Sequence record: MN895435.1
DNA length: 64,000 bases
DNA from: Escherichia phage teqhal
Reading direction: 5' to 3' (one strand)
The position numbers and the translations under genes were made by a program. The notes under the pieces are model-generated. The model was not told where the DNA came from, did not search any database, and worked only from the letters and a program-made list of their open reading frames with translations. Positions 3,661 through 45,025 of this stretch are shown piece after piece (position 1 is the stretch's first letter; the number at the start of each line of letters is the position of its first letter).

Positions 3661-3817
3661 TTTATACGGAGTTTGATATAATGATATTTCTTGGATATGT
3701 GATACTTTTTCTTGCATTTTATCTATTCACTAGAGCATGTTGGATTGGGTTCTTTAGTACTCCAGATGGATTTATTTCAATAATTTTATTTTGCATTTCA
3801 ATGACGGTTCTTGATAT

Positions 3818-4837
3818 ATGAAAATTTTAAATTTAGGTGATTGGCATTTAGGCGTTAAAGCCGATGATGAGTGGGTTCAATCCATTCAGTTGGATGGAAT
3901 TAAACAAGCAATAGAATATTCTAAGAAAAATGGAATTACTACCTGGATTCAATACGGTGATATTTTTGATGTGCGAAAAGCAATCACACACAAAACTATG
4001 GAGTTCGCCCGTGAAATAGTTCAAATGCTTGATGATGCTGGTATTACCCTACATACTATTGTAGGAAACCATGATATGCACTTTAAAAATACTTTAACTC
4101 CAAATGCCTCTACTGAGCTTTTGGCTAAATATCCTAATGTTAAAGTATATGATAAGCCTACTACAGTAGATTTTGACGGATGTTTAATTGATTTAATTCC
4201 TTGGATGTGTGAAGAAAATACTGGTGAAATTCTTGAGCATATCAAAACTTCATCTGCTTCTTTTTGTGTTGGTCACTGGGAACTGAATGGATTTTATTTT
4301 TATAAAGGAATGAAATCTCACGGTCTTGAACCTGATTTCCTTAAGACTTATAAAGAAGTGTGGTCTGGTCACTTCCATACTATTTCTGAGGCTGCAAACG
4401 TCAGATATATTGGGACACCATGGACACTAACTGCAGGTGACGAGAATGACCCTCGTGGGTTCTGGATGTTTGATACAGAAACAGAACGAATGGAATTTAT
4501 TCCAAACAACACTACTTGGCATCGTAGAATTCATTATCCATTTAAAGGAAAAATTGACTATAAAGATTTTACAAATCTATCAGTACGTGTTATAGTAACT
4601 GAAGTAGACAAAAATCTGACGAAGTTCGAATCTGAACTAGAAAAAGTTGTGCATTCATTACGAGTTGTGTCAAAGATTGATAACTCTGTCGAGTCAGATG
4701 ACAGTGAAGAAGTTGAAGTTCAATCTCTTCAGACGTTGATGGAAGAATACATTAATGCAATTCCAGACATCACTGATTCTGACCGTGAAGCACTTATTCA
4801 ATATGCAAATCAGTTATATGTAGAGGCAACACAATGA
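3818..4837 (+). CDS. 47: recombination/repair nuclease gp47 (Mre11-like)
   Basis: 339 aa, phosphoesterase motifs GDWH and GNHD, T4 gp47 length. Confidence 0.9.
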   Translation: MKILNLGDWHLGVKADDEWVQSIQLDGIKQAIEYSKKNGITTWIQYGDIFDVRKAITHKTMEFAREIVQMLDDAGITLHTIVGNHDMHFKNTLTPNASTELLAKYPNVKVYDKPTTVDFDGCLIDLIPWMCEENTGEILEHIKTSSASFCVGHWELNGFYFYKGMKSHGLEPDFLKTYKEVWSGHFHTISEAANVRYIGTPWTLTAGDENDPRGFWMFDTETERMEFIPNNTTWHRRIHYPFKGKIDYKDFTNLSVRVIVTEVDKNLTKFESELEKVVHSLRVVSKIDNSVESDDSEEVEVQSLQTLMEEYINAIPDITDSDREALIQYANQLYVEATQ

Positions 4838-14822: not shown

Positions 14823-15074
14823 ATGGAAACTTTAGTAGCAGGTTCAATTTTTATGGTTTTAGTTTCAGGTGTGTTGGCTATTATTATATACATGCTTCCA
14901 TGGTTTATCGCCTTGATGCGTGGGTCAAAATCTACAGTAGGAATCTTTTTCACGTCTTTACTGTTTAACTGGTCAATTATTGGTTGGTTTATTACATTTA
15001 TTTGGTCAATTGCGGGTGAAACTAAAAAGTCTGCACAACCAAATCAGGTAATTATCATCAGAGAGAAGGAATGA
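14823..15074 (+). CDS. imm: superinfection immunity protein Imm
   Basis: 83 aa two-TM membrane protein at the T4 imm position between 43 and 42. Confidence 0.75.
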   Translation: METLVAGSIFMVLVSGVLAIIIYMLPWFIALMRGSKSTVGIFFTSLLFNWSIIGWFITFIWSIAGETKKSAQPNQVIIIREKE

Positions 15075-15220
15075 AAAGCAAAATTATAACAGTGTTGCTT
15101 TTAATCTTGATGGTTATAATAAGTATATACTATAGCGTAACAGTTCCTGCTATGATTCCAACTCTTATCATAGGGTGGGGTTTATTACTGTTACAAGTTA
15201 AATATGAATGTATCAATTGA
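15071..15220 (+). CDS. small membrane peptide (49 aa)
   Basis: ATGA overlap with imm stop; MKSKIITVLLLILMVIISIYY; not in ORF track (under 60 aa). Confidence 0.35.
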   Translation: MKSKIITVLLLILMVIISIYYSVTVPAMIPTLIIGWGLLLLQVKYECIN

Positions 15221-18412: not shown

Positions 18413-19840
18413 GTGGTAGAAATTATTCTTTCCCATCTCATATTTGATCAAGCTTATTTTTCAAAAGTTTGGCCATATATGGATTCAGAATATTTTGAAA
18501 GTGGTCCAGCTAAAAATACATTCAAATTAATTAAATCTCATGTTAATGAGTACCATAGCGTTCCATCTATTAATGCGTTAAATGTTGCATTAGAAAATAG
18601 TTCATTTACTGAAACAGAATATTCTGGTGTAAAAACACTTATTTCGAAACTAGCCGATTCTCCAGAAGACCATAGCTGGTTAGTAAAAGAAACAGAAAAA
18701 TATGTTCAGCAAAGGGCGATGTTTAATGCTACGTCTAAAATAATTGAAATTCAAACTAATGCTGAGCTTCCTCCGGAAAAACGAAATAAGAAAATGCCAG
18801 ATGTAGGTGCTATTCCTGACATCATGCGCCAAGCATTATCAATTTCATTTGATAGTTACGTTGGTCATGATTGGATGGATGACTACGAAGCACGTTGGCT
18901 ATCTTATATGAGTAAAGCTCGTAAGGTTCCATTTAGACTCAAAATTCTAAATAAAATTACTAAAGGTGGAGCTGAAACTGGAACACTGAACGTTTTAATG
19001 GCTGGTGTTAACGTCGGTAAGTCATTAGGTCTGTGTTCATTGGCAGCAGATTATTTGCAGCTCGGACATAATGTTCTTTACATTTCCATGGAAATGGCAG
19101 AAGAAGTCTGTGCTAAGCGTATTGATGCTAATATGCTTGATGTTTCTCTTGATGACATTGATGACGGGCATATTTCTTACGCTGAGTATAAAGGAAAAAT
19201 GGAAAAATGGCGTGAGAAATCTACCCTTGGTCGTTTAATCGTTAAACAGTATCCTACTGGTGGAGCAGACGCTAACACATTCAGGTCTCTCTTGAATGAA
19301 TTGAAGCTCAAGAAGAATTTTGTTCCAACAATCATTATTGTCGACTATCTAGGTATTTGTAAATCTTGCCGCATCAGAGTTTATTCAGAAAATAGTTACA
19401 CAACTGTTAAAGCTATTGCAGAGGAATTGCGTGCTCTGGCTGTTGAAACCGAAACTGTTCTTTGGACTGCAGCACAGGTCGGTAAACAAGCTTGGGACTC
19501 TTCCGATGTTAACATGAGCGATATTGCAGAATCTGCTGGTCTTCCAGCAACAGCTGATTTTATGCTTGCGGTCATTGAAACCGAGGAGCTAGCAGCTGCT
19601 GAACAACAACTCATTAAGCAAATCAAATCACGATATGGCGATAAGAATAAGTGGAATAAGTTTTTAATGGGTGTTCAAAAGGGAAATCAGAAATGGGTAG
19701 AAATTGAACAAGATTCTACTCCAACTGAAGTGAGTGAAGTAGCAGGTTCACAACAGATACAAGCTGAGCAGAATCGCTATCAAAGAAACGAATCGACTCG
19801 AGCTCAGTTAGATGCTTTGGCAAATGAATTAAAATTTTAG
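18413..19840 (+). CDS. 41: replicative helicase gp41 (DnaB-like)
   Basis: 475 aa, GTG start, Walker A GVNVGKS, T4 gp41 length. Confidence 0.9.
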   Translation: MVEIILSHLIFDQAYFSKVWPYMDSEYFESGPAKNTFKLIKSHVNEYHSVPSINALNVALENSSFTETEYSGVKTLISKLADSPEDHSWLVKETEKYVQQRAMFNATSKIIEIQTNAELPPEKRNKKMPDVGAIPDIMRQALSISFDSYVGHDWMDDYEARWLSYMSKARKVPFRLKILNKITKGGAETGTLNVLMAGVNVGKSLGLCSLAADYLQLGHNVLYISMEMAEEVCAKRIDANMLDVSLDDIDDGHISYAEYKGKMEKWREKSTLGRLIVKQYPTGGADANTFRSLLNELKLKKNFVPTIIIVDYLGICKSCRIRVYSENSYTTVKAIAEELRALAVETETVLWTAAQVGKQAWDSSDVNMSDIAESAGLPATADFMLAVIETEELAAAEQQLIKQIKSRYGDKNKWNKFLMGVQKGNQKWVEIEQDSTPTEVSEVAGSQQIQAEQNRYQRNESTRAQLDALANELKF

Positions 19841-21846: not shown

Positions 21847-22875
21847 ATGTCATCAATACCTTGGATTGATAATGAGTTTGCATACCGTGCATTAGCTCAT
21901 TTACCTAAATTCACACAAGTAAATAATAGTTCAACTTTTAAATTGCGGTTTAGATGTCCTGTTTGTGGAGATTCAAAAACCGACCAGAATAAAGCTCGTG
22001 GATGGTATTATGGTGATAATAATGAAGGAAATATTCATTGTTATAACTGTAATTATCATGCACCAATCGGAATATATTTAAAGGAGTTTGAACCTGATTT
22101 ATATCGTGAGTATATCTTTGAAATAAGAAAAGAAAAAGGTAAAAGTCGTCCAATAGAAAAACCTAAAGAACTTCCTAAGCAACCTGAGAAGAAAATAATT
22201 AAATCTCTTCCGTCATGTGTTAGATTAGATAAACTAGTGGAAGACCATCCAATTATAAAATATGTAAAAGCTCGTTGTATTCCAAAGGATAAATGGAAAT
22301 ATCTTTGGTTTACAACCGAATGGCCTAAATTAGTTAATAGCATAGCACCGGGAACATACAAAAAGGAAATTTCTGAGCCTCGTCTTGTTATTCCAATTTA
22401 TAATGCTAATGGAAAAGCTGAGTCTTTTCAAGGACGTGCATTAAAGAAAGATGCTCCTCAAAAATATATCACCATTAAAGCTTATCCTGAGGCAACAAAA
22501 ATTTACGGTGTTGAACGAGTTAAAGATGGTGATGTATATGTTCTAGAAGGACCTATAGATTCACTTTTTATTGAAAATGGTATAGCTATTACAGGTGGTC
22601 AATTAGACCTAGAAGTTGTTCCATTTAAAGATAGACGAGTGTGGGTTTTAGATAATGAACCTCGTCACCTTGACACTATCAAACGAATGACTAAATTAGT
22701 TGATGCAGGAGAAAGGGTTATGTTTTGGGATAAATCTCCCTGGAAATCAAAAGATGTCAATGATATGATTAGAAAGGAAGGTGCAACCCCTGAACAAATT
22801 ATGGAATATATGAAAAATAATATTGCCCAGGGGTTGATGGCTAAAATGCGGCTATCTAAATATGCTAAGATTTAA
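21847..22875 (+). CDS. 61: DNA primase gp61
   Basis: 342 aa, zinc ribbon CPVCGDS...CYNC and Toprim region, T4 gp61 length. Confidence 0.9.
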   Translation: MSSIPWIDNEFAYRALAHLPKFTQVNNSSTFKLRFRCPVCGDSKTDQNKARGWYYGDNNEGNIHCYNCNYHAPIGIYLKEFEPDLYREYIFEIRKEKGKSRPIEKPKELPKQPEKKIIKSLPSCVRLDKLVEDHPIIKYVKARCIPKDKWKYLWFTTEWPKLVNSIAPGTYKKEISEPRLVIPIYNANGKAESFQGRALKKDAPQKYITIKAYPEATKIYGVERVKDGDVYVLEGPIDSLFIENGIAITGGQLDLEVVPFKDRRVWVLDNEPRHLDTIKRMTKLVDAGERVMFWDKSPWKSKDVNDMIRKEGATPEQIMEYMKNNIAQGLMAKMRLSKYAKI

Positions 22876-23072
22876 ATCAACCCAACTAAAGCAAATGCTA
22901 AATCTACAAATGTATCAAGAGTAACTACTGGAATATTAATACCATGCGCAATTGCAACAGGTGATAGAATAAAGTTCCAGAGTAAAATTCCTACCATAGC
23001 AGAAATAGTAAAAGCTATACGTTTTTTATTACCTTTTATGGCATTAACAAGTGCCATTAATTTTTGTACCAT
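22872..23072 (-). CDS. small antisense membrane protein
   Basis: 66 aa, strong SD AAGGAGGA 5 nt upstream, hydrophobic segments; convergent with gene 61. Confidence 0.4.
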   Translation of the reverse strand: MVQKLMALVNAIKGNKKRIAFTISAMVGILLWNFILSPVAIAHGINIPVVTLDTFVDLAFALVGLI

Positions 23073-39479: not shown

Positions 39480-40418
39480 ATGTACAATATTAAATGCCTG
39501 ACCAAAAACGAACAATCTGAAATTGTTAAATTGTATTCAAGTGGTAATTACACCCAACAGGAATTGGCTGATTGGCAAGGTGTATCGGTTGACACAATCC
39601 GTCGTGTTTTGAAAAATGCTGAAGAAGCTAAACGCTCTAAAGTTACTATTAGCGGTGATATTACAGTTAAAGTTAATAGCGATGCAGTTATTGCTCCAGT
39701 TGCTAAATCTGACATTATTTGGAATGCATCTAAAAAATTCATTTCAATTACTGTTGACGGTGTAACTTATAACGCAACTCCTAATACTCATTCAAACTTC
39801 CAGGAAATTCTTAATCTGCTTGTAGCGGATAAGCTGGAAGAAGCTGCACAAAAAATTAATGTTCGCCGTGCTGTTGAAAAATATATTTCCGGCGATGTTC
39901 GAATTGAAGGTGGAAGCTTGTTCTATCAAAATATCGAATTGCGGTCTGGTTTGGTTGATCGTATTCTTGACTCGATGGAAAAAGGCGAAAACTTTGAATT
40001 TTATTTTCCGTTCTTGGAAAATCTGCTGGAAAACCCAAGCCAAAAAGCGGTATCTCGACTCTTTGATTTCTTGGTAGCAAACGATATTGAAATTACAGAA
40101 GATGGTTACTTCTATGCTTGGAAAGTAGTTCGCAGCAATTACTTTGACTGTCACTCAAACACCTTTGATAACAGTCCGGGTAAAGTAGTTAAAATGCCGC
40201 GTACTCGTGTGAATGACGATGATACACAAACTTGTTCTCGTGGTCTGCATGTGTGTTCTAAATCTTATATTCGTCACTTCGGTGGTTCAACCAGCCGAGT
40301 TGTAAAAGTTAAAGTACATCCACGCGATGTAGTATCAATTCCGATTGATTACAACGATGCTAAAATGCGTACCTGCCAATACGAAGTAGTTGAAGACGTT
40401 ACTGAACAATTTAAATAA
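39480..40418 (+). CDS. rIIB: rIIB protein
   Basis: 312 aa, same length and position as T4 rIIB. Confidence 0.9.
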   Translation: MYNIKCLTKNEQSEIVKLYSSGNYTQQELADWQGVSVDTIRRVLKNAEEAKRSKVTISGDITVKVNSDAVIAPVAKSDIIWNASKKFISITVDGVTYNATPNTHSNFQEILNLLVADKLEEAAQKINVRRAVEKYISGDVRIEGGSLFYQNIELRSGLVDRILDSMEKGENFEFYFPFLENLLENPSQKAVSRLFDFLVANDIEITEDGYFYAWKVVRSNYFDCHSNTFDNSPGKVVKMPRTRVNDDDTQTCSRGLHVCSKSYIRHFGGSTSRVVKVKVHPRDVVSIPIDYNDAKMRTCQYEVVEDVTEQFK

Positions 40419-40436
40419 GGGCTTCGGCCCTTAACT
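40416..40436 (+). terminator. UUCG-loop hairpin TAAGGGCTTCGGCCCTTA
   Basis: palindrome overlapping rIIB stop. Confidence 0.5.
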
Positions 40437-40446
40437 AAGGAAAATT

Positions 40447-40641
40447 ATGTTAGGTTATCAAGCACGAGTAAAAGAAGAATACGATCAATTAATGCTCAAA
40501 ATTAATGCACTGAGTAAATTTTTAGAAAGCACAAAGTTTCTAACGGTTAGTGCAGTTGAGCAAGAACTGCTACTTTCACAGTTCATCTCAATGAAATCTT
40601 ATGCTGAATGTTTAGAGAAAAGAATTGCACAATTCAAATAA
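40447..40641 (+). CDS. hypothetical coiled-coil protein
   Basis: 64 aa ORF bracketed by two near-identical hairpins. Confidence 0.45.
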   Translation: MLGYQARVKEEYDQLMLKINALSKFLESTKFLTVSAVEQELLLSQFISMKSYAECLEKRIAQFK

Positions 40642-40643
40642 AT

Positions 40644-40666
40644 AAGGGCTTCGGCCCTTTTGTTTT
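40644..40666 (+). terminator. UUCG-loop hairpin AAGGGCTTCGGCCCTTTTGTTTT
   Basis: palindrome plus T-rich tail. Confidence 0.6.
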
Positions 40667-40723
40667 AAGGGAAACTATGATTTTGTATGAATATCAGTGA
40701 TTCCGACGTAAAAGGAAAGTTTA

Positions 40724-41281
40724 ATGCAGAAAACGAATCCGGGTTTACAGAGACTATTTCAGATTCCGACATTTACCCTATCGAACAGTGACTTGACTAG
40801 TGAAATGAAGGTCAAAATTGCTGATACAGCAAGATACTCTTTAAAACAAAATCCAAATCAGGATAAGGCAGAAGTTATCGAAAGATGCCGTATCGCTGTG
40901 TACGCAGAGTTTTTTGTGGCAGATTGGCTAAGCGGATATGTCAATAAAGGCCAAGAAGATGTCGATGATCCGTACACATATGCATGGGATGTTTTAGCAC
41001 ATCCAAAATACTGTGGGCTCCGTGTAGAAGTTAAGACACATCAAACTGACTCGCGTTGGATTTCGGTAACAACGGGATGCAGCGGAGAGTATCCATATGG
41101 TTCTGGAATAAATCTAGGGCCCATTCTAAATCATCAAGTCGCGGACTGTATAATTATATTCAACACTAAAGAAATTCATCCAGGTGTCATCCAGTACACT
41201 CCGAAGTTCATTGGTGATAGAGAAGACCTTCGTAAGGTTGTAAGAAAAAGCAACTACAACGGCTGGTATCTTTCCATTTAA
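40724..41281 (+). CDS. denB: endonuclease IV DenB
   Basis: 185 aa, T4 denB length and position next to rIIB. Confidence 0.8.
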   Translation: MQKTNPGLQRLFQIPTFTLSNSDLTSEMKVKIADTARYSLKQNPNQDKAEVIERCRIAVYAEFFVADWLSGYVNKGQEDVDDPYTYAWDVLAHPKYCGLRVEVKTHQTDSRWISVTTGCSGEYPYGSGINLGPILNHQVADCIIIFNTKEIHPGVIQYTPKFIGDREDLRKVVRKSNYNGWYLSI

Positions 41282-41297
41282 AAATTTTCACAAAACG

Positions 41298-41330
41298 GTT
41301 TACATACCACAAGGACCGTGGTATTATACA
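41298..41330 (+). promoter_or_regulatory. T4-type early promoter with conserved leader
   Basis: GTTTACATACCACAAGGACCGTGGTATTATAC then CAACTATCAACTACTGATAC. Confidence 0.55.
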
Positions 41331-41364
41331 ACTATCAACTACTGATACGGATTTGGAGAATAAA

Positions 41365-41628
41365 ATGAAATTTAAATTTTATTACGCTAAACATAAAATA
41401 ACTGATGAGTTTGTGTCAGTTGAATATTCTAGCGATGATGAAGGTATGATTTATACTCGCTTGGGACTATCGCATTGGGAGTCTGATACGCCTTATTTTT
41501 CAACTCCCGAAGAAATTACACGCTTAGTTAATGGTCATATGAATGACCACTGGAATGTAATTCTTTCAGATAGTCTTAAAGCAGCTATTAATAGTAATGA
41601 AATGAAAATCGCTGAGATTGAGCTATGA
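41365..41628 (+). CDS. hypothetical protein
   Basis: 87 aa from ATG 41365 (track ORF begins at upstream TTG). Confidence 0.45.
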   Translation: MKFKFYYAKHKITDEFVSVEYSSDDEGMIYTRLGLSHWESDTPYFSTPEEITRLVNGHMNDHWNVILSDSLKAAINSNEMKIAEIEL

Positions 41629-41814
41629 GTTCACTATGGTGGTGTTTTGTTTGGTTAATTAGTATTCCAGTAATTTGTTTAACATTTACTTTTGTAATGA
41701 GGTTATTATGAAAATTTTGAATTCTGTACTTATTGCTTGTGCGTGGTGGGTTGCACAGGTTTCAGCGGTAGTAGTTGGTATTCACATTTATTACGAATAT
41801 TTTTAAAAAAGTTG

Positions 41815-41846
41815 TTTACAGGACTGTTCTTCCGTGGTACTATTAC
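41815..41846 (+). promoter_or_regulatory. T4-type early promoter
   Basis: GTTTACAGGACTGTTCTTCCGTGGTACTATTA. Confidence 0.5.
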
Positions 41847-41871
41847 CCTATCAACTACGGAGGAACAGAAA

Positions 41872-41985
41872 ATGAAAAAGATTGTTAAAGCTATATGGAA
41901 TGTAGTTATAATACTAATAGTTTTGAGTATATTCCCAATCGTTTTAATGATTGATATGTTAAACGCTTATTTTGGATTTATGTGA
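41872..41985 (+). CDS. small membrane peptide (37 aa)
   Basis: MKKIVKAIWNVVIILIVLSIF after GGAGG RBS; within track ORF 41737..41985. Confidence 0.3.
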   Translation: MKKIVKAIWNVVIILIVLSIFPIVLMIDMLNAYFGFM

Positions 41986-41992
41986 GGAAAAT

Positions 41993-42190
41993 ATGAAGCG
42001 TAAACGCAGTGCTTTTACATTTATTGAATGGTTTTTCGATAATATTTTTCCGGCTTTATTCATTTTCATGCTTATTTTTGCCTTGGGTTCAGTTGTAGTT
42101 GGAATCTATTTGATGACAGTAGTCGGAATTGATATTCATCAAAATGGTTTAAAATCTGTGGTTGAAACAATTTGGAATGGTGTAAAATAA
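41993..42190 (+). CDS. small membrane protein (65 aa)
   Basis: ATG after GAGGAAAAT RBS; hydrophobic segment FPALFIFMLIFALGSVVVGIYL. Confidence 0.4.
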   Translation: MKRKRSAFTFIEWFFDNIFPALFIFMLIFALGSVVVGIYLMTVVGIDIHQNGLKSVVETIWNGVK

Positions 42191-42305
42191 TGAATTTACT
42201 AAACATTTGGTTTTATATTCTTATGTTTTACATTGGTGCAAATTTTCCATATTGGATGGGATGGTCAACAACTGCATTCGGATTTTATACTCCTTGAGGT
42301 GAATT

Positions 42306-42521
42306 ATGAAAATTTTTAAAGATGTAAAAGTTGGTGAAATTTTTTGTTTAGATAATGGTGATCAGTTAATTCGCATTTCACCTCTTAAGAGCACTAGCGA
42401 AAAAATGACAGTTAATGCTACTTTAGCAAACAATAGTAATGAACGTTTCTGTATTGAAAATGATACTGAAACTTATACCGTAGAAGAGTTTTGGGAATTG
42501 AGCGTCGACTGCGACGATTAA
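42306..42521 (+). CDS. hypothetical protein
   Basis: 71 aa ORF. Confidence 0.45.
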   Translation: MKIFKDVKVGEIFCLDNGDQLIRISPLKSTSEKMTVNATLANNSNERFCIENDTETYTVEEFWELSVDCDD

Positions 42522-42581
42522 TTTAATGGCCGCGTGTATTCATGCGGCCTTGGAGTAGAAAATAATTTAGAGGAAATTAAT

Positions 42582-43040
42582 ATGAAATATATGACTGTTA
42601 CTGATCTAAATGATGCAGGCGCTACTGTTATTGGTACAATCAAGGGTGGTGAATGGTTTTTAGGAACTCCGCATAAAGATATTTTATCTAAACCTGGATT
42701 TTACTTTTTAGTAAGTAAATTAGATGGTCGTCCATTTAGTAATCCATGTGTGTCTGCACGATTTTATGTAGGTAATCAGCGTTCTAAGCAAGGATTCAGT
42801 GCAGTTCTAAGTCATATTCGTCAACGTCGGTCTCAGCTTGCACGTACTATTGCAAATAACAATATGGTATACACAGTATTTTATCTGCCTGCTTCTAAGA
42901 TGAAACCTCTGACGACAGGATTTGGTAAAGGTCAGTTAGCTTTGGCGTTTACCCGTAATCATCATTCCGAGTATCAAACACTTGAAGAAATGAACCGTAT
43001 GTTGGCTGATAACTTTAAATTCGTTTTGCAGGCATATTAA
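42582..43040 (+). CDS. ndd: nucleoid disruption protein Ndd
   Basis: 152 aa from ATG 42582 with GAGG RBS (track ORF 42534..43040); [28 protein letters not shown] matches remembered T4 Ndd. Confidence 0.85.
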
Positions 43041-43120
43041 TGAGTAATTTCCACAACGAACACGTGATGCAGTTCTATCGTAATAATCTTAAAACTAAAG
43101 GCGTCTTCGGACGCCAGTGA
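43040..43120 (+). CDS. stp: Stp peptide (26 aa), modulator of host restriction/anticodon-nuclease system
   Basis: [26 protein letters not shown] matches remembered T4 Stp; ATG overlaps ndd stop; absent from ORF track. Confidence 0.7.
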
Positions 43121-43127
43121 GGAAAAT

Positions 43128-43286
43128 ATGAATATTGCAAAATTATTAGGAGTTATTTCATTTATTTGTTGGATAGTAGCATGTGTTTTAACTATCTGTA
43201 TCGATGCTAGCAGTGTGTTTTCGCAAGCTTTAGCTCAGGGTATGTGTGCATATTTAACATTTGTGTTGTTATCTACTAATGATTAA
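43128..43286 (+). CDS. ac: small membrane protein, Ac-like (acridine sensitivity)
   Basis: 52 aa hydrophobic peptide MNIAKLLGVISFICWIVACVLTICID at the T4 ac position; absent from ORF track. Confidence 0.5.
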   Translation: MNIAKLLGVISFICWIVACVLTICIDASSVFSQALAQGMCAYLTFVLLSTND

Positions 43287-43423
43287 GAAAATCTTGGGCT
43301 ATTCATTAGCCCTTGCTACTTTATTAGTAGCACTATATTATGGAGTAATGTTCGGATTGATTCAAGTCGTGCTTTTCATTTCTGATGTTATTATGGCACT
43401 ACATTCACTAGTATGGTAAATTT

Positions 43424-44752
43424 ATGCAACTGAATAATCGCGATTTAAAAAGTATCATTGATAATGAAGCATTGGCTTATGCTATGTACACGGTTGAAAA
43501 TCGTGCTATTCCAAATATGATTGATGGATTTAAGCCAGTTCAACGATTTGTTATTGCTCGAGCTCTTGATTTGGCACGAGGAAATAAAGATAAGTTTCAC
43601 AAACTTGCTTCTATTGCAGGTGGTGTAGCGGACCTTGGATATCACCATGGTGAAAACTCTGCACAAGATGCAGGGGCTTTGATGGCTAATACTTGGAATA
43701 ATAACTTTCCTTTGTTAGATGGTCAAGGAAACTTCGGTTCTCGTACTGTCCAAAAGGCAGCAGCTAGTCGTTATATTTTTGCTCGTGTAAGTAAAAATTT
43801 CTATAACGTATATAAAGATACTGAATATGCTCCAGTACATCAAGATAAAGAACACATTCCGCCTGCTTTCTATTTGCCTATTATTCCTACTGTTCTTCTT
43901 AATGGTGTTTCCGGTATTGCAACTGGTTATGCAACTTACATTCTTCCTCATAGTGTTTCTTCTGTCAAGAAAGCTGTACTGCAAGCTCTTCAAGGAAAGA
44001 AAGTAACTAAACCGAAGGTAGAATTCCCAGAATTTCGTGGTGAAGTCGTTGAGATTGATGGGCAATATGAAATTCGTGGAACATACAAGTTTACTTCACG
44101 AACTCAAATGCATATCACTGAGATTCCGTATAAGTATGATCGTGAAACTTATGTGAGTAAAATCTTAGACCCACTTGAAGATAAAGGCTTCATTACGTGG
44201 GATGATGCTTGTGGTGAGCATGGCTTTGGCTTTAAAGTTAAATTCCGTAAAGAATATTCTTTGAGCGATAATGAAGAAGAACGCCATGCAAAAATTATGA
44301 AAGACTTCGGGTTGATTGAGCGTCGTTCCCAAAATATTACCGTTATTAATGAGAAAGGAAAGCTACAAGTTTACGATAACGTAGTTGATTTAATCAAAGA
44401 CTTCGTTGAAGTTCGTAAAACTTATGTCCAAAAACGAATTGATAACAAAATCAAAGAAACTGAATCAGCATTTCGTTTAGCCTTTGCCAAGGCGCATTTC
44501 ATTAAGAAAGTAATTTCAGGTGAAATTGTTGTACAGGGTAAAACTCGTAAAGAACTGACCGAAGAACTTTCTAAAATTGAGATGTATTCTTCTTATGTTG
44601 ATAAACTAGTTGGAATGAATATTTTTCATATGACTTCTGATGAAGCAAAGAAACTTGCTGAAGAAGCTAAAGCTAAAAAAGAAGAAAACGAATATTGGAA
44701 AACTACTGATGTAGTTACAGAATACACTAAAGATTTAGAGGAAATCAAATGA
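43424..44752 (+). CDS. 52: topoisomerase II medium subunit gp52 (GyrA-like)
   Basis: 442 aa, same length as T4 gp52. Confidence 0.9.
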   Translation: MQLNNRDLKSIIDNEALAYAMYTVENRAIPNMIDGFKPVQRFVIARALDLARGNKDKFHKLASIAGGVADLGYHHGENSAQDAGALMANTWNNNFPLLDGQGNFGSRTVQKAAASRYIFARVSKNFYNVYKDTEYAPVHQDKEHIPPAFYLPIIPTVLLNGVSGIATGYATYILPHSVSSVKKAVLQALQGKKVTKPKVEFPEFRGEVVEIDGQYEIRGTYKFTSRTQMHITEIPYKYDRETYVSKILDPLEDKGFITWDDACGEHGFGFKVKFRKEYSLSDNEEERHAKIMKDFGLIERRSQNITVINEKGKLQVYDNVVDLIKDFVEVRKTYVQKRIDNKIKETESAFRLAFAKAHFIKKVISGEIVVQGKTRKELTEELSKIEMYSSYVDKLVGMNIFHMTSDEAKKLAEEAKAKKEENEYWKTTDVVTEYTKDLEEIK

Positions 44753-44898
44753 GTCCATTCATTGGTATTACAAGCGCTGCATTAGTATCTGGCGGCATTT
44801 TACTAGCGGGGGTAGGTGTTGTTCCAGCCGTAGCAGGAGGTCTTCTTGCGTTCGGCATTCAACGTGTTATCATGACAGTTATCACAGTCATGCAGTAA
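44749..44898 (+). CDS. small Gly/Ala/Val-rich membrane peptide (49 aa)
   Basis: ATGA overlap with gene 52 stop; absent from ORF track. Confidence 0.4.
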   Translation: MSPFIGITSAALVSGGILLAGVGVVPAVAGGLLAFGIQRVIMTVITVMQ

Positions 44899-44902
44899 TT
44901 TT

Positions 44903-44929
44903 AGGGAGAGCCGAGGCTCTCCCTTTTTT
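44903..44929 (+). terminator. hairpin AGGGAGAGCCGAGGCTCTCCCTTTTTT
   Basis: perfect palindrome plus T-run. Confidence 0.65.
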
Positions 44930-44954
44930 ATTTCAAAAATTTTTTCATAAAACG

Positions 44955-44986
44955 GTTTACAACCAAAGCATACTGTGGTACTATAC
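44955..44986 (+). promoter_or_regulatory. T4-type early promoter with UP region and conserved leader
   Basis: GTTTACAACCAAAGCATACTGTGGTACTATAC upstream of motA. Confidence 0.55.
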
Positions 44987-45025
44987 AACTATCAACTACT
45001 GATACAGAATTACGGAGATTAGAAA

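Follow-up and report, generated by a model that had tools for sequence, protein, structure and literature searches.

Conserved small protein genes in the early accessory region between denB and gene 52 of Escherichia phage teqhal

Results

A colinear array of small genes around ndd, stp and ac

In Escherichia phage teqhal, the interval from denB to gene 52 carries a string of small open reading frames (ORFs) that surround ndd, stp and ac. We analyzed this block within a stretch of 64,000 nucleotides (nt) from sequence record MN895435.1 (the window, whose positions are used throughout). Positions 40700-43500 share 98.9% DNA identity with Escherichia phage vB_Eco_NR1 (Tequatrovirus, the T4 genus) and have matches in 559 phage records, almost all of them Tequatrovirus. 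On the + strand the genes run rIIB, denB.1, denB, an 87-amino-acid (aa) ORF (X87), ndd.6, ndd.5, ndd.4, a 65-aa ORF, ndd.2, ndd.1, ndd, stp, ac, 52.1 and gene 52 (Table 1), a layout colinear with denB-ndd.6...ndd-stp-ac-52.1-52 of T4 (reference annotation NC_000866 and its sequence). The block is the early accessory “D region” of T4-like phages, which has long been known. In this region of the T-even phages, also called hyperplastic, small accessory genes accumulate and are exchanged as cassettes (PMC4122927; PMC6071114).

A first-pass annotation, made from the letters alone, had listed eight small ORFs here in addition to ndd and stp. All eight (X87, ndd.6, ndd.5, ndd.4, the 65-aa ORF, ndd.2, ac and 52.1) are present on the + strand with ATG starts; the approximate starts given for them lay at most 4 nt from the true ones, and the letters of Stp had been quoted exactly. 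The list left out ndd.1, a soluble 71-aa ORF at 42306-42521.

All of these small ORFs are already known, either as annotated T4 genes or as PHROG or Pfam families. Every peptide has a full-length match to an existing PHROG, and Pfam covers Stp (PF08133), the 65-aa protein (DUF7248) and 52.1 (DUF7396). T4 genes ndd.6, ndd.5, ndd.4, ndd.3/ndd.2a, ndd.2, ndd.1 and 52.1 (PHROGs 8851, 5011, 3098, 2401, 4135, 2183 and 3595, respectively) resemble their teqhal counterparts in order, in junction overlaps and in amino-acid sequence (91-100% identity). For ndd.6, ndd.5, ndd.4 and ndd.2 the PHROG matches had E values of 1.6e-17 to 3.6e-26, in an order identical to that of T4.

Table 1. Genes, promoters and hairpins of the denB-gene 52 block. 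Fractions refer to the 17 Tequatrovirus loci described in the text.
Feature	Position	Strand	Description
denB (endonuclease IV)	40724..41281	+	Upstream boundary; 185-aa ORF, ATG start; intact in T4 and the other loci covering denB and annotated denB there
PE1	41299..41327	+	Early promoter of T4 type, TTTACA-N17-TATTAT with upstream TG; promoter scan
X87	41365..41628	+	87-aa acidic soluble protein; GGAG Shine-Dalgarno; phrog_2390, E=3.8e-46; missing in T4
ndd.6	41625..41711	+	28-aa hydrophobic peptide; phrog_8851; intact 16/17; start overlaps X87 stop (ATGA)
ndd.5	41708..41806	+	32-aa hydrophobic peptide; GAGG Shine-Dalgarno; phrog_5011; intact 17/17; ATGA overlap with ndd.6
PE2	41815..41843	+	Early promoter of T4 type, TTTACA-N17-TACTAT with upstream TG; kept 16/17
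ndd.4	41872..41985	+	37-aa peptide, one predicted membrane span; GGAGG Shine-Dalgarno; phrog_3098; intact 17/17
65-aa gene (T4 reference ndd.3 + ndd.2a)	41993..42190	+	DUF7248 membrane protein; PF23906, phrog_2401; intact 16/17
ndd.2	42190..42297	+	35-aa aromatic-rich uncharged peptide; phrog_4135; intact 17/17; TAATG overlap with 65-aa gene
ndd.1	42306..42521	+	71-aa acidic soluble protein; phrog_2183; intact 17/17; homologs in four other genera
ndd.1/ndd hairpin	42528..42549	+	GC-rich; -19.2 kcal/mol, z-score -4.7; in 16/17
ndd (nucleoid disruption protein)	42582..43040	+	152 aa, 97% identical to T4 Ndd
stp	43040..43120	+	26-aa basic soluble peptide; PF08133, 75.3 bits (cutoff 25); TAATG overlap with ndd
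stp hairpin	43100..43115	+	GGCGUC-UUCG-GACGCC in stp 3' end; -11.5 kcal/mol, z-score -3.4; identical 15/17
ac	43128..43286	+	52-aa membrane protein, two hydrophobic helices; phrog_2501, E=3.7e-25; 98% identical to T4 Ac
52.1	43279..43419	+	46-aa DUF7396 membrane protein; PF24129 full length, 81.9 bits (cutoff 27); intact 17/17
gene 52 (topoisomerase II medium subunit)	43424..44752	+	Downstream boundary; 442-aa ORF; annotated gene 52 in T4 and relatives

The small ORFs are protein-coding genes under purifying selection

AT-rich DNA easily gives rise to ORFs that look hydrophobic, and we therefore tested conservation. The within-genus sample consisted of 17 Tequatrovirus loci at 90-99% DNA identity, among them the T4 reference and IMG/VR contigs (Ndd scan, 5 loci). 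The first-pass reading depended on the frames being conserved in relatives, and this was borne out: wherever a slot was filled, the small ORFs were intact and began with ATG, with few exceptions. These were (i) the T4 reference, which splits the 65-aa gene, and (ii) one IMG/VR contig (L004) in which ndd.6 has lost its stop. As for the slots themselves, X87 is missing in T4, RB3 and RPN226, and three loci carry another allele at the ac slot.

Substitutions gathered at third codon positions. The ratio of nonsynonymous to synonymous polymorphism (pN/pS), pooled over the 17 loci in the annotated frame, was 0.05 for stp, 0.07 for ac, 0.10 for both the 65-aa gene and ndd.1, 0.11 for ndd.5, 0.15 for ndd.2, 0.16 for ndd.6, 0.32 for 52.1, 0.41 for X87 and 0.48 for ndd.4, while the two shifted frames mostly gave 0.7 to >2. 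The shortest genes have few substitutions, and for this reason the comparison was widened to eight loci of Dhakavirus, Mosigvirus, Gaprivervirus, Marfavirus and Winklervirus. Across these genera the Jukes-Cantor-corrected ratio of nonsynonymous to synonymous substitution rates (dN/dS) was 0.16 for stp, 0.18 for ndd.4, 0.21 for 52.1, 0.22 for X87 and ndd.1, 0.28 for ndd.6 and 0.44 for DUF7248; the characterised Ndd protein had a comparable value of 0.23.

The same set of genes recurs beyond Tequatrovirus. The layout from denB to gene 52 is kept in six genera: a soluble protein of ~87 aa, small hydrophobic peptides, the ndd.1 family and ndd, followed by Stp or a membrane protein, an Ac-like two-helix protein, 52.1 and gene 52. 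Peptides like ndd.4 and 52.1 could be recognised in all six genera. Other members are patchier: ndd.5 and ndd.2 are restricted to Tequatrovirus, DUF7248 is missing in Dhakavirus and Mosigvirus, and 52.1 was not detected in phage Gravdalen. A tblastn search of 50,697 phage genomes, whose counts are independent of annotation, matched 52.1 in 812 genomes, stp in 608, ndd.4 in 595, DUF7248 in 494, ndd.6 and ndd.2 in 493 each and ac in 462. The same search found no match for ndd.5; because the ndd.5 ORF is intact at the DNA level in 17/17 loci, the low-complexity filter probably masked the query. Thus the small ORFs are genuine genes whose protein products are kept by purifying selection, and the set reappears from one T-even genus to the next.

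Their grouping around ndd, stp and ac also exceeds chance. When genes were called uniformly and crudely across the entire window, 6 of the 13 non-nested small hydrophobic ORFs fell within the 1.8 kb from 41625 to 43419 (binomial P=7e-7). Further non-nested small hydrophobic ORFs of 46-66 aa lie at 3681-3821, 15071-15220, 19071-19238 and 22872-23072 (minus strand), two of them with good Shine-Dalgarno sites; the small hydrophobic ORFs elsewhere in the window are probably other annotated T4 micro-genes.

That gene calling misses such ORFs, another point of the first-pass annotation, is evident from 11 GenBank Tequatrovirus records, of which 3 annotate ndd.6, 4 annotate stp and 6 annotate 52.1. 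Where product names have been inherited (“outer membrane protein”, “periplasmic protein”, “naphthalene 1,2-dioxygenase”), they are implausible for helical peptides of 28-65 aa.

Six products are predicted membrane micro-proteins

Six of the ORFs are strongly hydrophobic, which we defined as a maximum above 2.1 in a Kyte-Doolittle window of 17-19 residues: ndd.6, ndd.5, ndd.4, the 65-aa protein, ac and 52.1 (maxima 2.2-3.4). In each of the six, charged residues are absent from a hydrophobic stretch at least ~20 residues long, as expected of a membrane micro-protein; the stretches comprise 25 residues in ndd.6, 27 in ndd.5, 21 in ndd.4, 30 in DUF7248, 20 and 25 in Ac and 31 in 52.1. The ndd.2 peptide is uncharged throughout and rich in aromatic residues, with moderate or borderline hydrophobicity. 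X87, ndd.1 and Stp are soluble, the first two being acidic and Stp basic.

The first-pass annotation had described most of the peptides as single-pass membrane peptides. This holds for the strong hydrophobicity of the six, but X87, ndd.1 and Stp are soluble, and Ac has two uncharged stretches. An ESMfold model of Ac in the Ac preprint also speaks against a single pass for that protein (bioRxiv 10.1101/2025.06.30.662393). For 52.1 and the 65-aa protein too, whose hydrophobic stretches run to 30-31 residues, a two-helix hairpin is possible in place of a single pass.

Features of individual members

The gene for X87 was intact in 14/17 loci as two allele classes that are ~54% identical, and homologs occur in Mosigvirus, Dhakavirus and Gaprivervirus. 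An AlphaFold2 model of the protein, built on only 5 shallow homologs, had a mean predicted local distance difference test score (pLDDT) of 43.8 and a predicted template modeling score (pTM) of 0.28, values too low to support a comparison of folds. Sequence searches of the PDB with X87 and with ndd.1 gave no meaningful match.

Homologs of ndd.6 were found in Dhakavirus and Mosigvirus; in contig L004, the apparent loss of its stop codon lets the frame run on to 83 aa. The ndd.4 peptide combines an N-terminal KK..K with its 21-residue uncharged core. Its annotated T4 version is 42 aa long and starts at an upstream ATG that is ACG in teqhal, which uses the internal ATG (37 aa). Similarly, ndd.2 has a single ATG in teqhal and encodes 35 aa, compared with 36 aa in T4.

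The 65-aa protein matched PF23906 with 68.1 bits (cutoff 27), its residues 6-63 aligning with profile positions 4-57 of 58, and its C-terminal motif GLKSVVE.IWNG is kept as far as Gaprivervirus and Winklervirus. At the other end of the block, 52.1 overlaps ac by 8 nt and ends 4 nt before the ATG of gene 52, an arrangement shared by five other genera. It has no Shine-Dalgarno site of its own and relies on the overlap with ac.

Gene 52 is flanked on both sides by hydrophobic micro-ORFs, with 52.1 (43279-43419) before its start and motA.1 (49 aa, 44749-44898) over its stop codon. Of the other loci, those of Gaprivervirus (DK-13), Marfavirus and Winklervirus reach past the gene 52 stop, and there too a small hydrophobic ORF overlaps or abuts it. 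Both 52.1 and motA.1 were non-essential in T4 screens.

Two differences from T4: a split 65-aa gene and a lost 87-aa gene

The 65-aa gene is intact in teqhal; in the T4 reference, one missing base at ATGAA(G)CGT breaks it into two annotated ORFs, ndd.3 (26 aa) and ndd.2a (40 aa) (window 41993-42190; T4 reference L002 2933-3129). When a 66-nt query spanning the T4 ndd.4/ndd.3 junction was searched, it matched exactly only X75802, AF158101 and NC_000866. The re-sequenced T4 strains among the matches listed (T4T, KJ477684, KJ477685, OZ209023 and OZ209057) aligned over 67 nt, which is one more base, and the other Tequatrovirus records listed also carry the extra base. Both KJ477684 and OZ209023 (L026:732-929 and L027:732-929) translate to an intact 65-aa DUF7248 protein. 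Given the extra base and the intact frame in re-sequenced T4, ndd.3, which is a PHROG singleton, is an artefact, and ndd.2a is the C-terminal 40 residues of the DUF7248 protein. The missing base has the appearance of an error in sequencing, or else of a mutation carried by the stock used for the original deposit. The split has been copied into other annotations, including those of RB68, RB3 and KJ477684.

The second difference is the additional gene in teqhal between denB and ndd.6, X87, which in T4 is down to 8 codons. An in-frame deletion of 237 nt between two AAATGAAA repeats has cost T4 the gene (window 41355-41628 versus L002:3497-3535, minus strand). The junction was read directly from the sequences, as MAFFT misplaced the right-hand side of the T4 deletion. 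What is left is an ORF encoding MKIAEIEL, whose stop still overlaps the ndd.6 ATG; the ribosome-binding site of ndd.6 and its translational coupling therefore appear to be preserved in T4.

Expression signals and cassette exchange

The block contains two early promoters of T4 type, which have in common a 30-nt promoter-plus-leader repeat (D2). At PE1 the sequence GTTTACA...GTGGTA(C/T)TAT is kept in 15/17 Tequatrovirus loci. Most starts are preceded by a GAGG, GGAG or GGAGG Shine-Dalgarno site, and the remaining ones overlap the preceding stop. The overlapping junctions are ATGA at X87/ndd.6 and ndd.6/ndd.5, TAATG at 65-aa gene/ndd.2 and ndd/stp, and ATGATTAA at ac/52.1.

Two hairpins were detected. 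The one between ndd.1 and ndd shows compensatory stem changes in relatives, for example in locus L012. The second spans the last codons of stp (K-G-V-F-G-R-Q) and lies directly 5' of the ac ribosome-binding site; in the two loci without it the C-termini of Stp are altered. Some records annotate the stp hairpin as a minus-strand terminator. A scan of positions 40000-45000 against Rfam returned no family, with one sub-threshold chance match (CrcZ, 21.6 bits versus a gathering score of 95).

Allele replacement was directly seen at two places: the ac slot, with three types, and the slot that follows denB and PE1, which varies between relatives and has several occupants. An identical 16-nt block, GTGAGGAAAATATGAA, comprising stop, Shine-Dalgarno site and start, precedes both the 65-aa gene (41982-41997) and ac (43117-43132) and may be a short footprint of recombination or duplication.

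In the hyperplastic regions of T4-like phages, cassettes are reportedly shuffled by way of an early promoter plus stem-loop (PeSL), as Arbiol is said to have described in 2010. A worked example of PeSL shuffling is the ndd.4/.5 exchange between T4 and phage PST (Comeau et al. 2014, Fig. 6A; PMC4122927). The teqhal block resembles such regions in being non-essential and variable, in having a repeated early promoter plus leader that flanks a cassette, and in comprising the same ndd.4/.5 locus. It differs in that the string is mostly stable within Tequatrovirus, variation being confined to two places, the ac slot and the one that follows denB. We rejected a strict PeSL architecture for PE1 and PE2: the stem-loop was not found, the 19 nt from the denB stop to PE1 do not fold (free energy 0), and the sequence upstream of PE2 yielded no terminator-like hairpin. 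We therefore take the shuffling as PeSL-like and not identical.

Stp and Ac

Stp matched PF08133 over its full length (residues 1-26, E=2e-21). It is 100% identical over its 26 aa to T4 Stp, the “anticodon nuclease activator”, and occupies the same place overlapping the ndd stop. In the 17 loci residues 1-16 are invariant, and three loci carry L17F. The first-pass annotation had linked Stp to the host restriction and anticodon-nuclease system, and this role is documented: Stp binds the type Ic restriction complex EcoprrI and blocks restriction, which unmasks the PrrC anticodon nuclease, with the N-proximal 18 residues implicated in the interaction with EcoprrI (PMC3014915). Stp is basic, soluble and cytoplasmic, unlike its neighbours, and is therefore no model for the hydrophobic peptides.

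Outside the T4-like phages we encountered unannotated Stp-like ORFs of 25 aa with good Shine-Dalgarno sites in phage Bas95 (L028:1501-1578) and in PH1062, a member of the Drexlerviridae (L029:1501-1578; MSSHHNEHVMQLYRHNLKSHGRLGK). Four Veterinaerplatzvirus records (Drexlerviridae) also match Stp. These homologs are not new, as the gene is already annotated in the T1-like phage Rtp (Drexlerviridae); the spread of Stp to non-T4 phages is on record yet widely missed.

The ac gene lies between stp and 52.1, with the same 8-nt overlap with the 52.1 start as in T4. As in phage PP01, the teqhal protein has one Thr more than T4 Ac, in front of the C-terminal ND, and this residue is reported to have no effect on phenotype (bioRxiv 10.1101/2025.06.30.662393). 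Expression of T4 Ac alone makes E. coli ~3 logs more sensitive to acriflavine (bioRxiv 10.1101/2025.06.30.662393; repeated in PMC13250531), and deletion of ac makes T4 resistant to acriflavine; blocking of AcrAB-TolC by Ac was proposed, not shown (bioRxiv 10.1101/2025.06.30.662393). Thanks to the work on T4 Ac, Ac is the only hydrophobic member of the block with a demonstrated cellular effect.

The three allele types at the ac slot within Tequatrovirus (other alleles in loci L011, L012 and L017) are T4-type Ac, a divergent Ac-like protein (MKFVNGIAFFCW..., as in RB68) and an unrelated two-helix type that is also present in Dhakavirus and Gaprivervirus. Each of the three has ...ND at its C-terminus, where the gene overlaps the start of 52.1.

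Published function and fitness of the block

In T4, the saΔ9 deletion removes 52.1, ac, stp, ndd, ndd.1-ndd.6 and denB (Kutter et al. 2018, PMC6071114). The mutant is viable, with a yield ~50% that of wild type, and phospholipid synthesis is no longer stimulated after infection; several of the ndd.1-6 products are thought to be membrane proteins (PMC6071114). In a multi-omics study of T4, the RNA of all block genes was classified as “early”, and protein was detected for Ndd and Ndd.1 only, Ndd.1 as an early protein (PMC9697503, supplement file 4). Every block gene was non-essential in the HIDEN-SEQ preprint (transposon sequencing, supplement file 7) and “Not Fit” by CRISPRi-ART (PMC11879866, supplement file 15), while gene 52 was essential or “Fit” in both. 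On laboratory hosts, then, each of the small genes can be dispensed with. A literature search found no ribosome profiling (Ribo-seq) study of T4.

Discussion

The block between denB and gene 52 is, we think with good confidence, an early-transcribed, non-essential and cassette-shuffled accessory D region. Promoters at 41299 and 41815 would drive two tightly packed gene runs, with many genes translationally coupled through ATGA, TAATG or 8-nt overlaps, and a conserved hairpin after ndd.1 would precede the delayed-early genes ndd, stp, ac, 52.1 and 52. The block encodes three characterised effectors of host takeover, namely Ndd (which disrupts the nucleoid), Stp (anti-restriction) and Ac (which raises intracellular acridine), along with two acidic soluble proteins (X87 and ndd.1) and six other micro-proteins (ndd.6, ndd.5, ndd.4, DUF7248, ndd.2 and 52.1). 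Each hydrophobic peptide would insert into the host inner membrane minutes after infection; N-terminal Lys/Arg clusters predict that ndd.4, DUF7248 and 52.1 are oriented with the N-terminus in. Each would then have its own point of action, be it a membrane complex of the host or the physiology of the envelope, much as has been proposed for Ac and AcrAB-TolC, and the gain from the peptides would be a host- or condition-specific advantage.

Bacteria themselves make membrane peptides of ~30-50 aa with one or two helices that bind a larger inner-membrane complex, such as AcrZ (which binds AcrB), MgrB (PhoQ) and MgtS (MgtA). This mode of binding is the one proposed for Ac and would extend to its neighbours; the likeness lies in the mode of action, with no sequence relationship claimed, and the phage peptides differ as early-expressed takeover or accessory factors. 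T4 also encodes Imm, Sp, RI and RIII, small proteins of ~80-100 aa that are encoded at other loci, serve superinfection exclusion or lysis inhibition at the envelope of the infected host, and are non-essential on laboratory strains. The peptides described here are shorter and lie at another locus, and PHROG and Pfam scans revealed no homology between the two groups.

Several observations weigh against this interpretation. The within-genus pN/pS is weak for ndd.4 (0.48) and 52.1 (0.32) because their substitutions are few, and the argument for these two genes is carried by the comparison across genera. At neither PE1 nor PE2 was a stem-loop found directly upstream of the promoter. Two genome-wide screens, HIDEN-SEQ and CRISPRi-ART, show no single-gene phenotype. 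The phospholipid phenotype is that of saΔ9 as a whole, and denB, ndd or a soluble protein could account for it. That the peptides insert into the membrane, how they are oriented there and what they target are all predicted. Finally, the hydrophobic micro-products are entered as “NA” in the T4 proteomics, with no protein detected (PMC9697503 supplement), although peptides this small and hydrophobic would be expected to go unseen in standard mass spectrometry.

One alternative is that the hydrophobic peptides form one coordinated system, assembling together or sharing a pathway to remodel the host inner membrane (lipid synthesis, permeability or efflux). Their clustering is significant, their genes are tightly coupled in translation, and the set and its order are repeated across genera; the membrane-lipid phenotype of saΔ9 is a phenotype of the block (PMC6071114), and Ac affects membrane transport (bioRxiv 10.1101/2025.06.30.662393). 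Nevertheless, members have been independently gained, lost or replaced both between genera and within Tequatrovirus (the ac slot, ndd.5, ndd.2, DUF7248 and 52.1), two separate promoters divide the set, the interleaved Stp and Ndd have unrelated cytoplasmic targets, and no single-gene phenotype is reported. We consider a coordinated system unlikely. The clustering is most likely a product of cassette gain, loss and exchange at repeated promoter-leader sequences and not of a single joint machine. The first-pass description of a locus specialised for small effector peptides is accordingly right about the clustering and about Stp as an effector, but the locus is better called an early, non-essential, cassette-shuffled accessory region, and nothing functionally ties the hydrophobic peptides to Stp or to restriction.

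Alternatively, the small ORFs might matter mainly through being translated, with ribosomes on the polycistronic early mRNA setting the expression of downstream ndd, stp, ac and 52 through coupling or through protection from Rho termination or RNases. Stop-start overlaps at most junctions fit this idea, as do the 8-codon remnant in T4, whose retained overlap with the ndd.6 start suggests selection on coupling itself, and the dependence of 52.1 on the ac overlap. The amino acids themselves, however, are under purifying selection as strong as that on Ndd (dN/dS 0.16-0.28 for ndd.6, ndd.4, 52.1 and stp), and hydrophobicity and motifs persist at ~70% DNA identity (SIFPIVFMID in ndd.4, GLKSVVE.IWNG in DUF7248 and YYGVMFGLIQVVLFISDVIM in 52.1). 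Moreover, transposon insertions in the small ORFs do not produce the essential phenotype of downstream gene 52 (HIDEN-SEQ). A role in translation alone is thus very improbable. As to chance ORFs, thrown up by AT- and T-rich phage DNA and passed on by annotators who followed the T4 record, the T-rich codons that encode Phe, Ile and Leu, the odd labels (“outer membrane protein”, “naphthalene 1,2-dioxygenase”) that betray uncritical propagation and the artefactual T4 ndd.3 would all suit such a reading, but it is already effectively refuted by the conservation analysis, with frames and ATG starts kept across 17 loci with few exceptions, third-position substitutions and low pN/pS in the annotated frame only, orthologs in five further genera, and ORFs that are non-nested, on the coding strand and mostly equipped with Shine-Dalgarno sites.

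As an early accessory region, the block was sequenced more than 30 years ago, and our finding rediscovers an annotated part of the T4 map and therefore changes little. It does show that genes of 26-46 aa under purifying selection are poorly served by annotation: ndd.6 and stp are absent from more than half of the sampled GenBank records and 52.1 from nearly half. In the T4 reference, ndd.3 and ndd.2a should give way to one 65-aa DUF7248 gene. The 87-aa gene, for its part, has never been studied because T4 lacks it.

For the biology of the T-even phages, the question is what the hydrophobic peptides do to the host. The phenotypes of saΔ9, that is, the lost stimulation of phosphatidylglycerol and phospholipid synthesis and the altered acridine sensitivity, may be due to at least one hydrophobic micro-protein acting directly on inner-membrane enzymes or transporters of the host, a suggestion we make tentatively. 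The most widely conserved candidates for the membrane-lipid phenotype are ndd.4, DUF7248 and 52.1. At the ends of gene 52, 52.1 and motA.1 could link the topoisomerase or the replication machinery to the membrane. If the suggestion about saΔ9 is true, membrane peptides of 28-65 aa would be a conserved toolkit of the T-even phages, one with which they reprogram the host envelope in the first minutes after infection.

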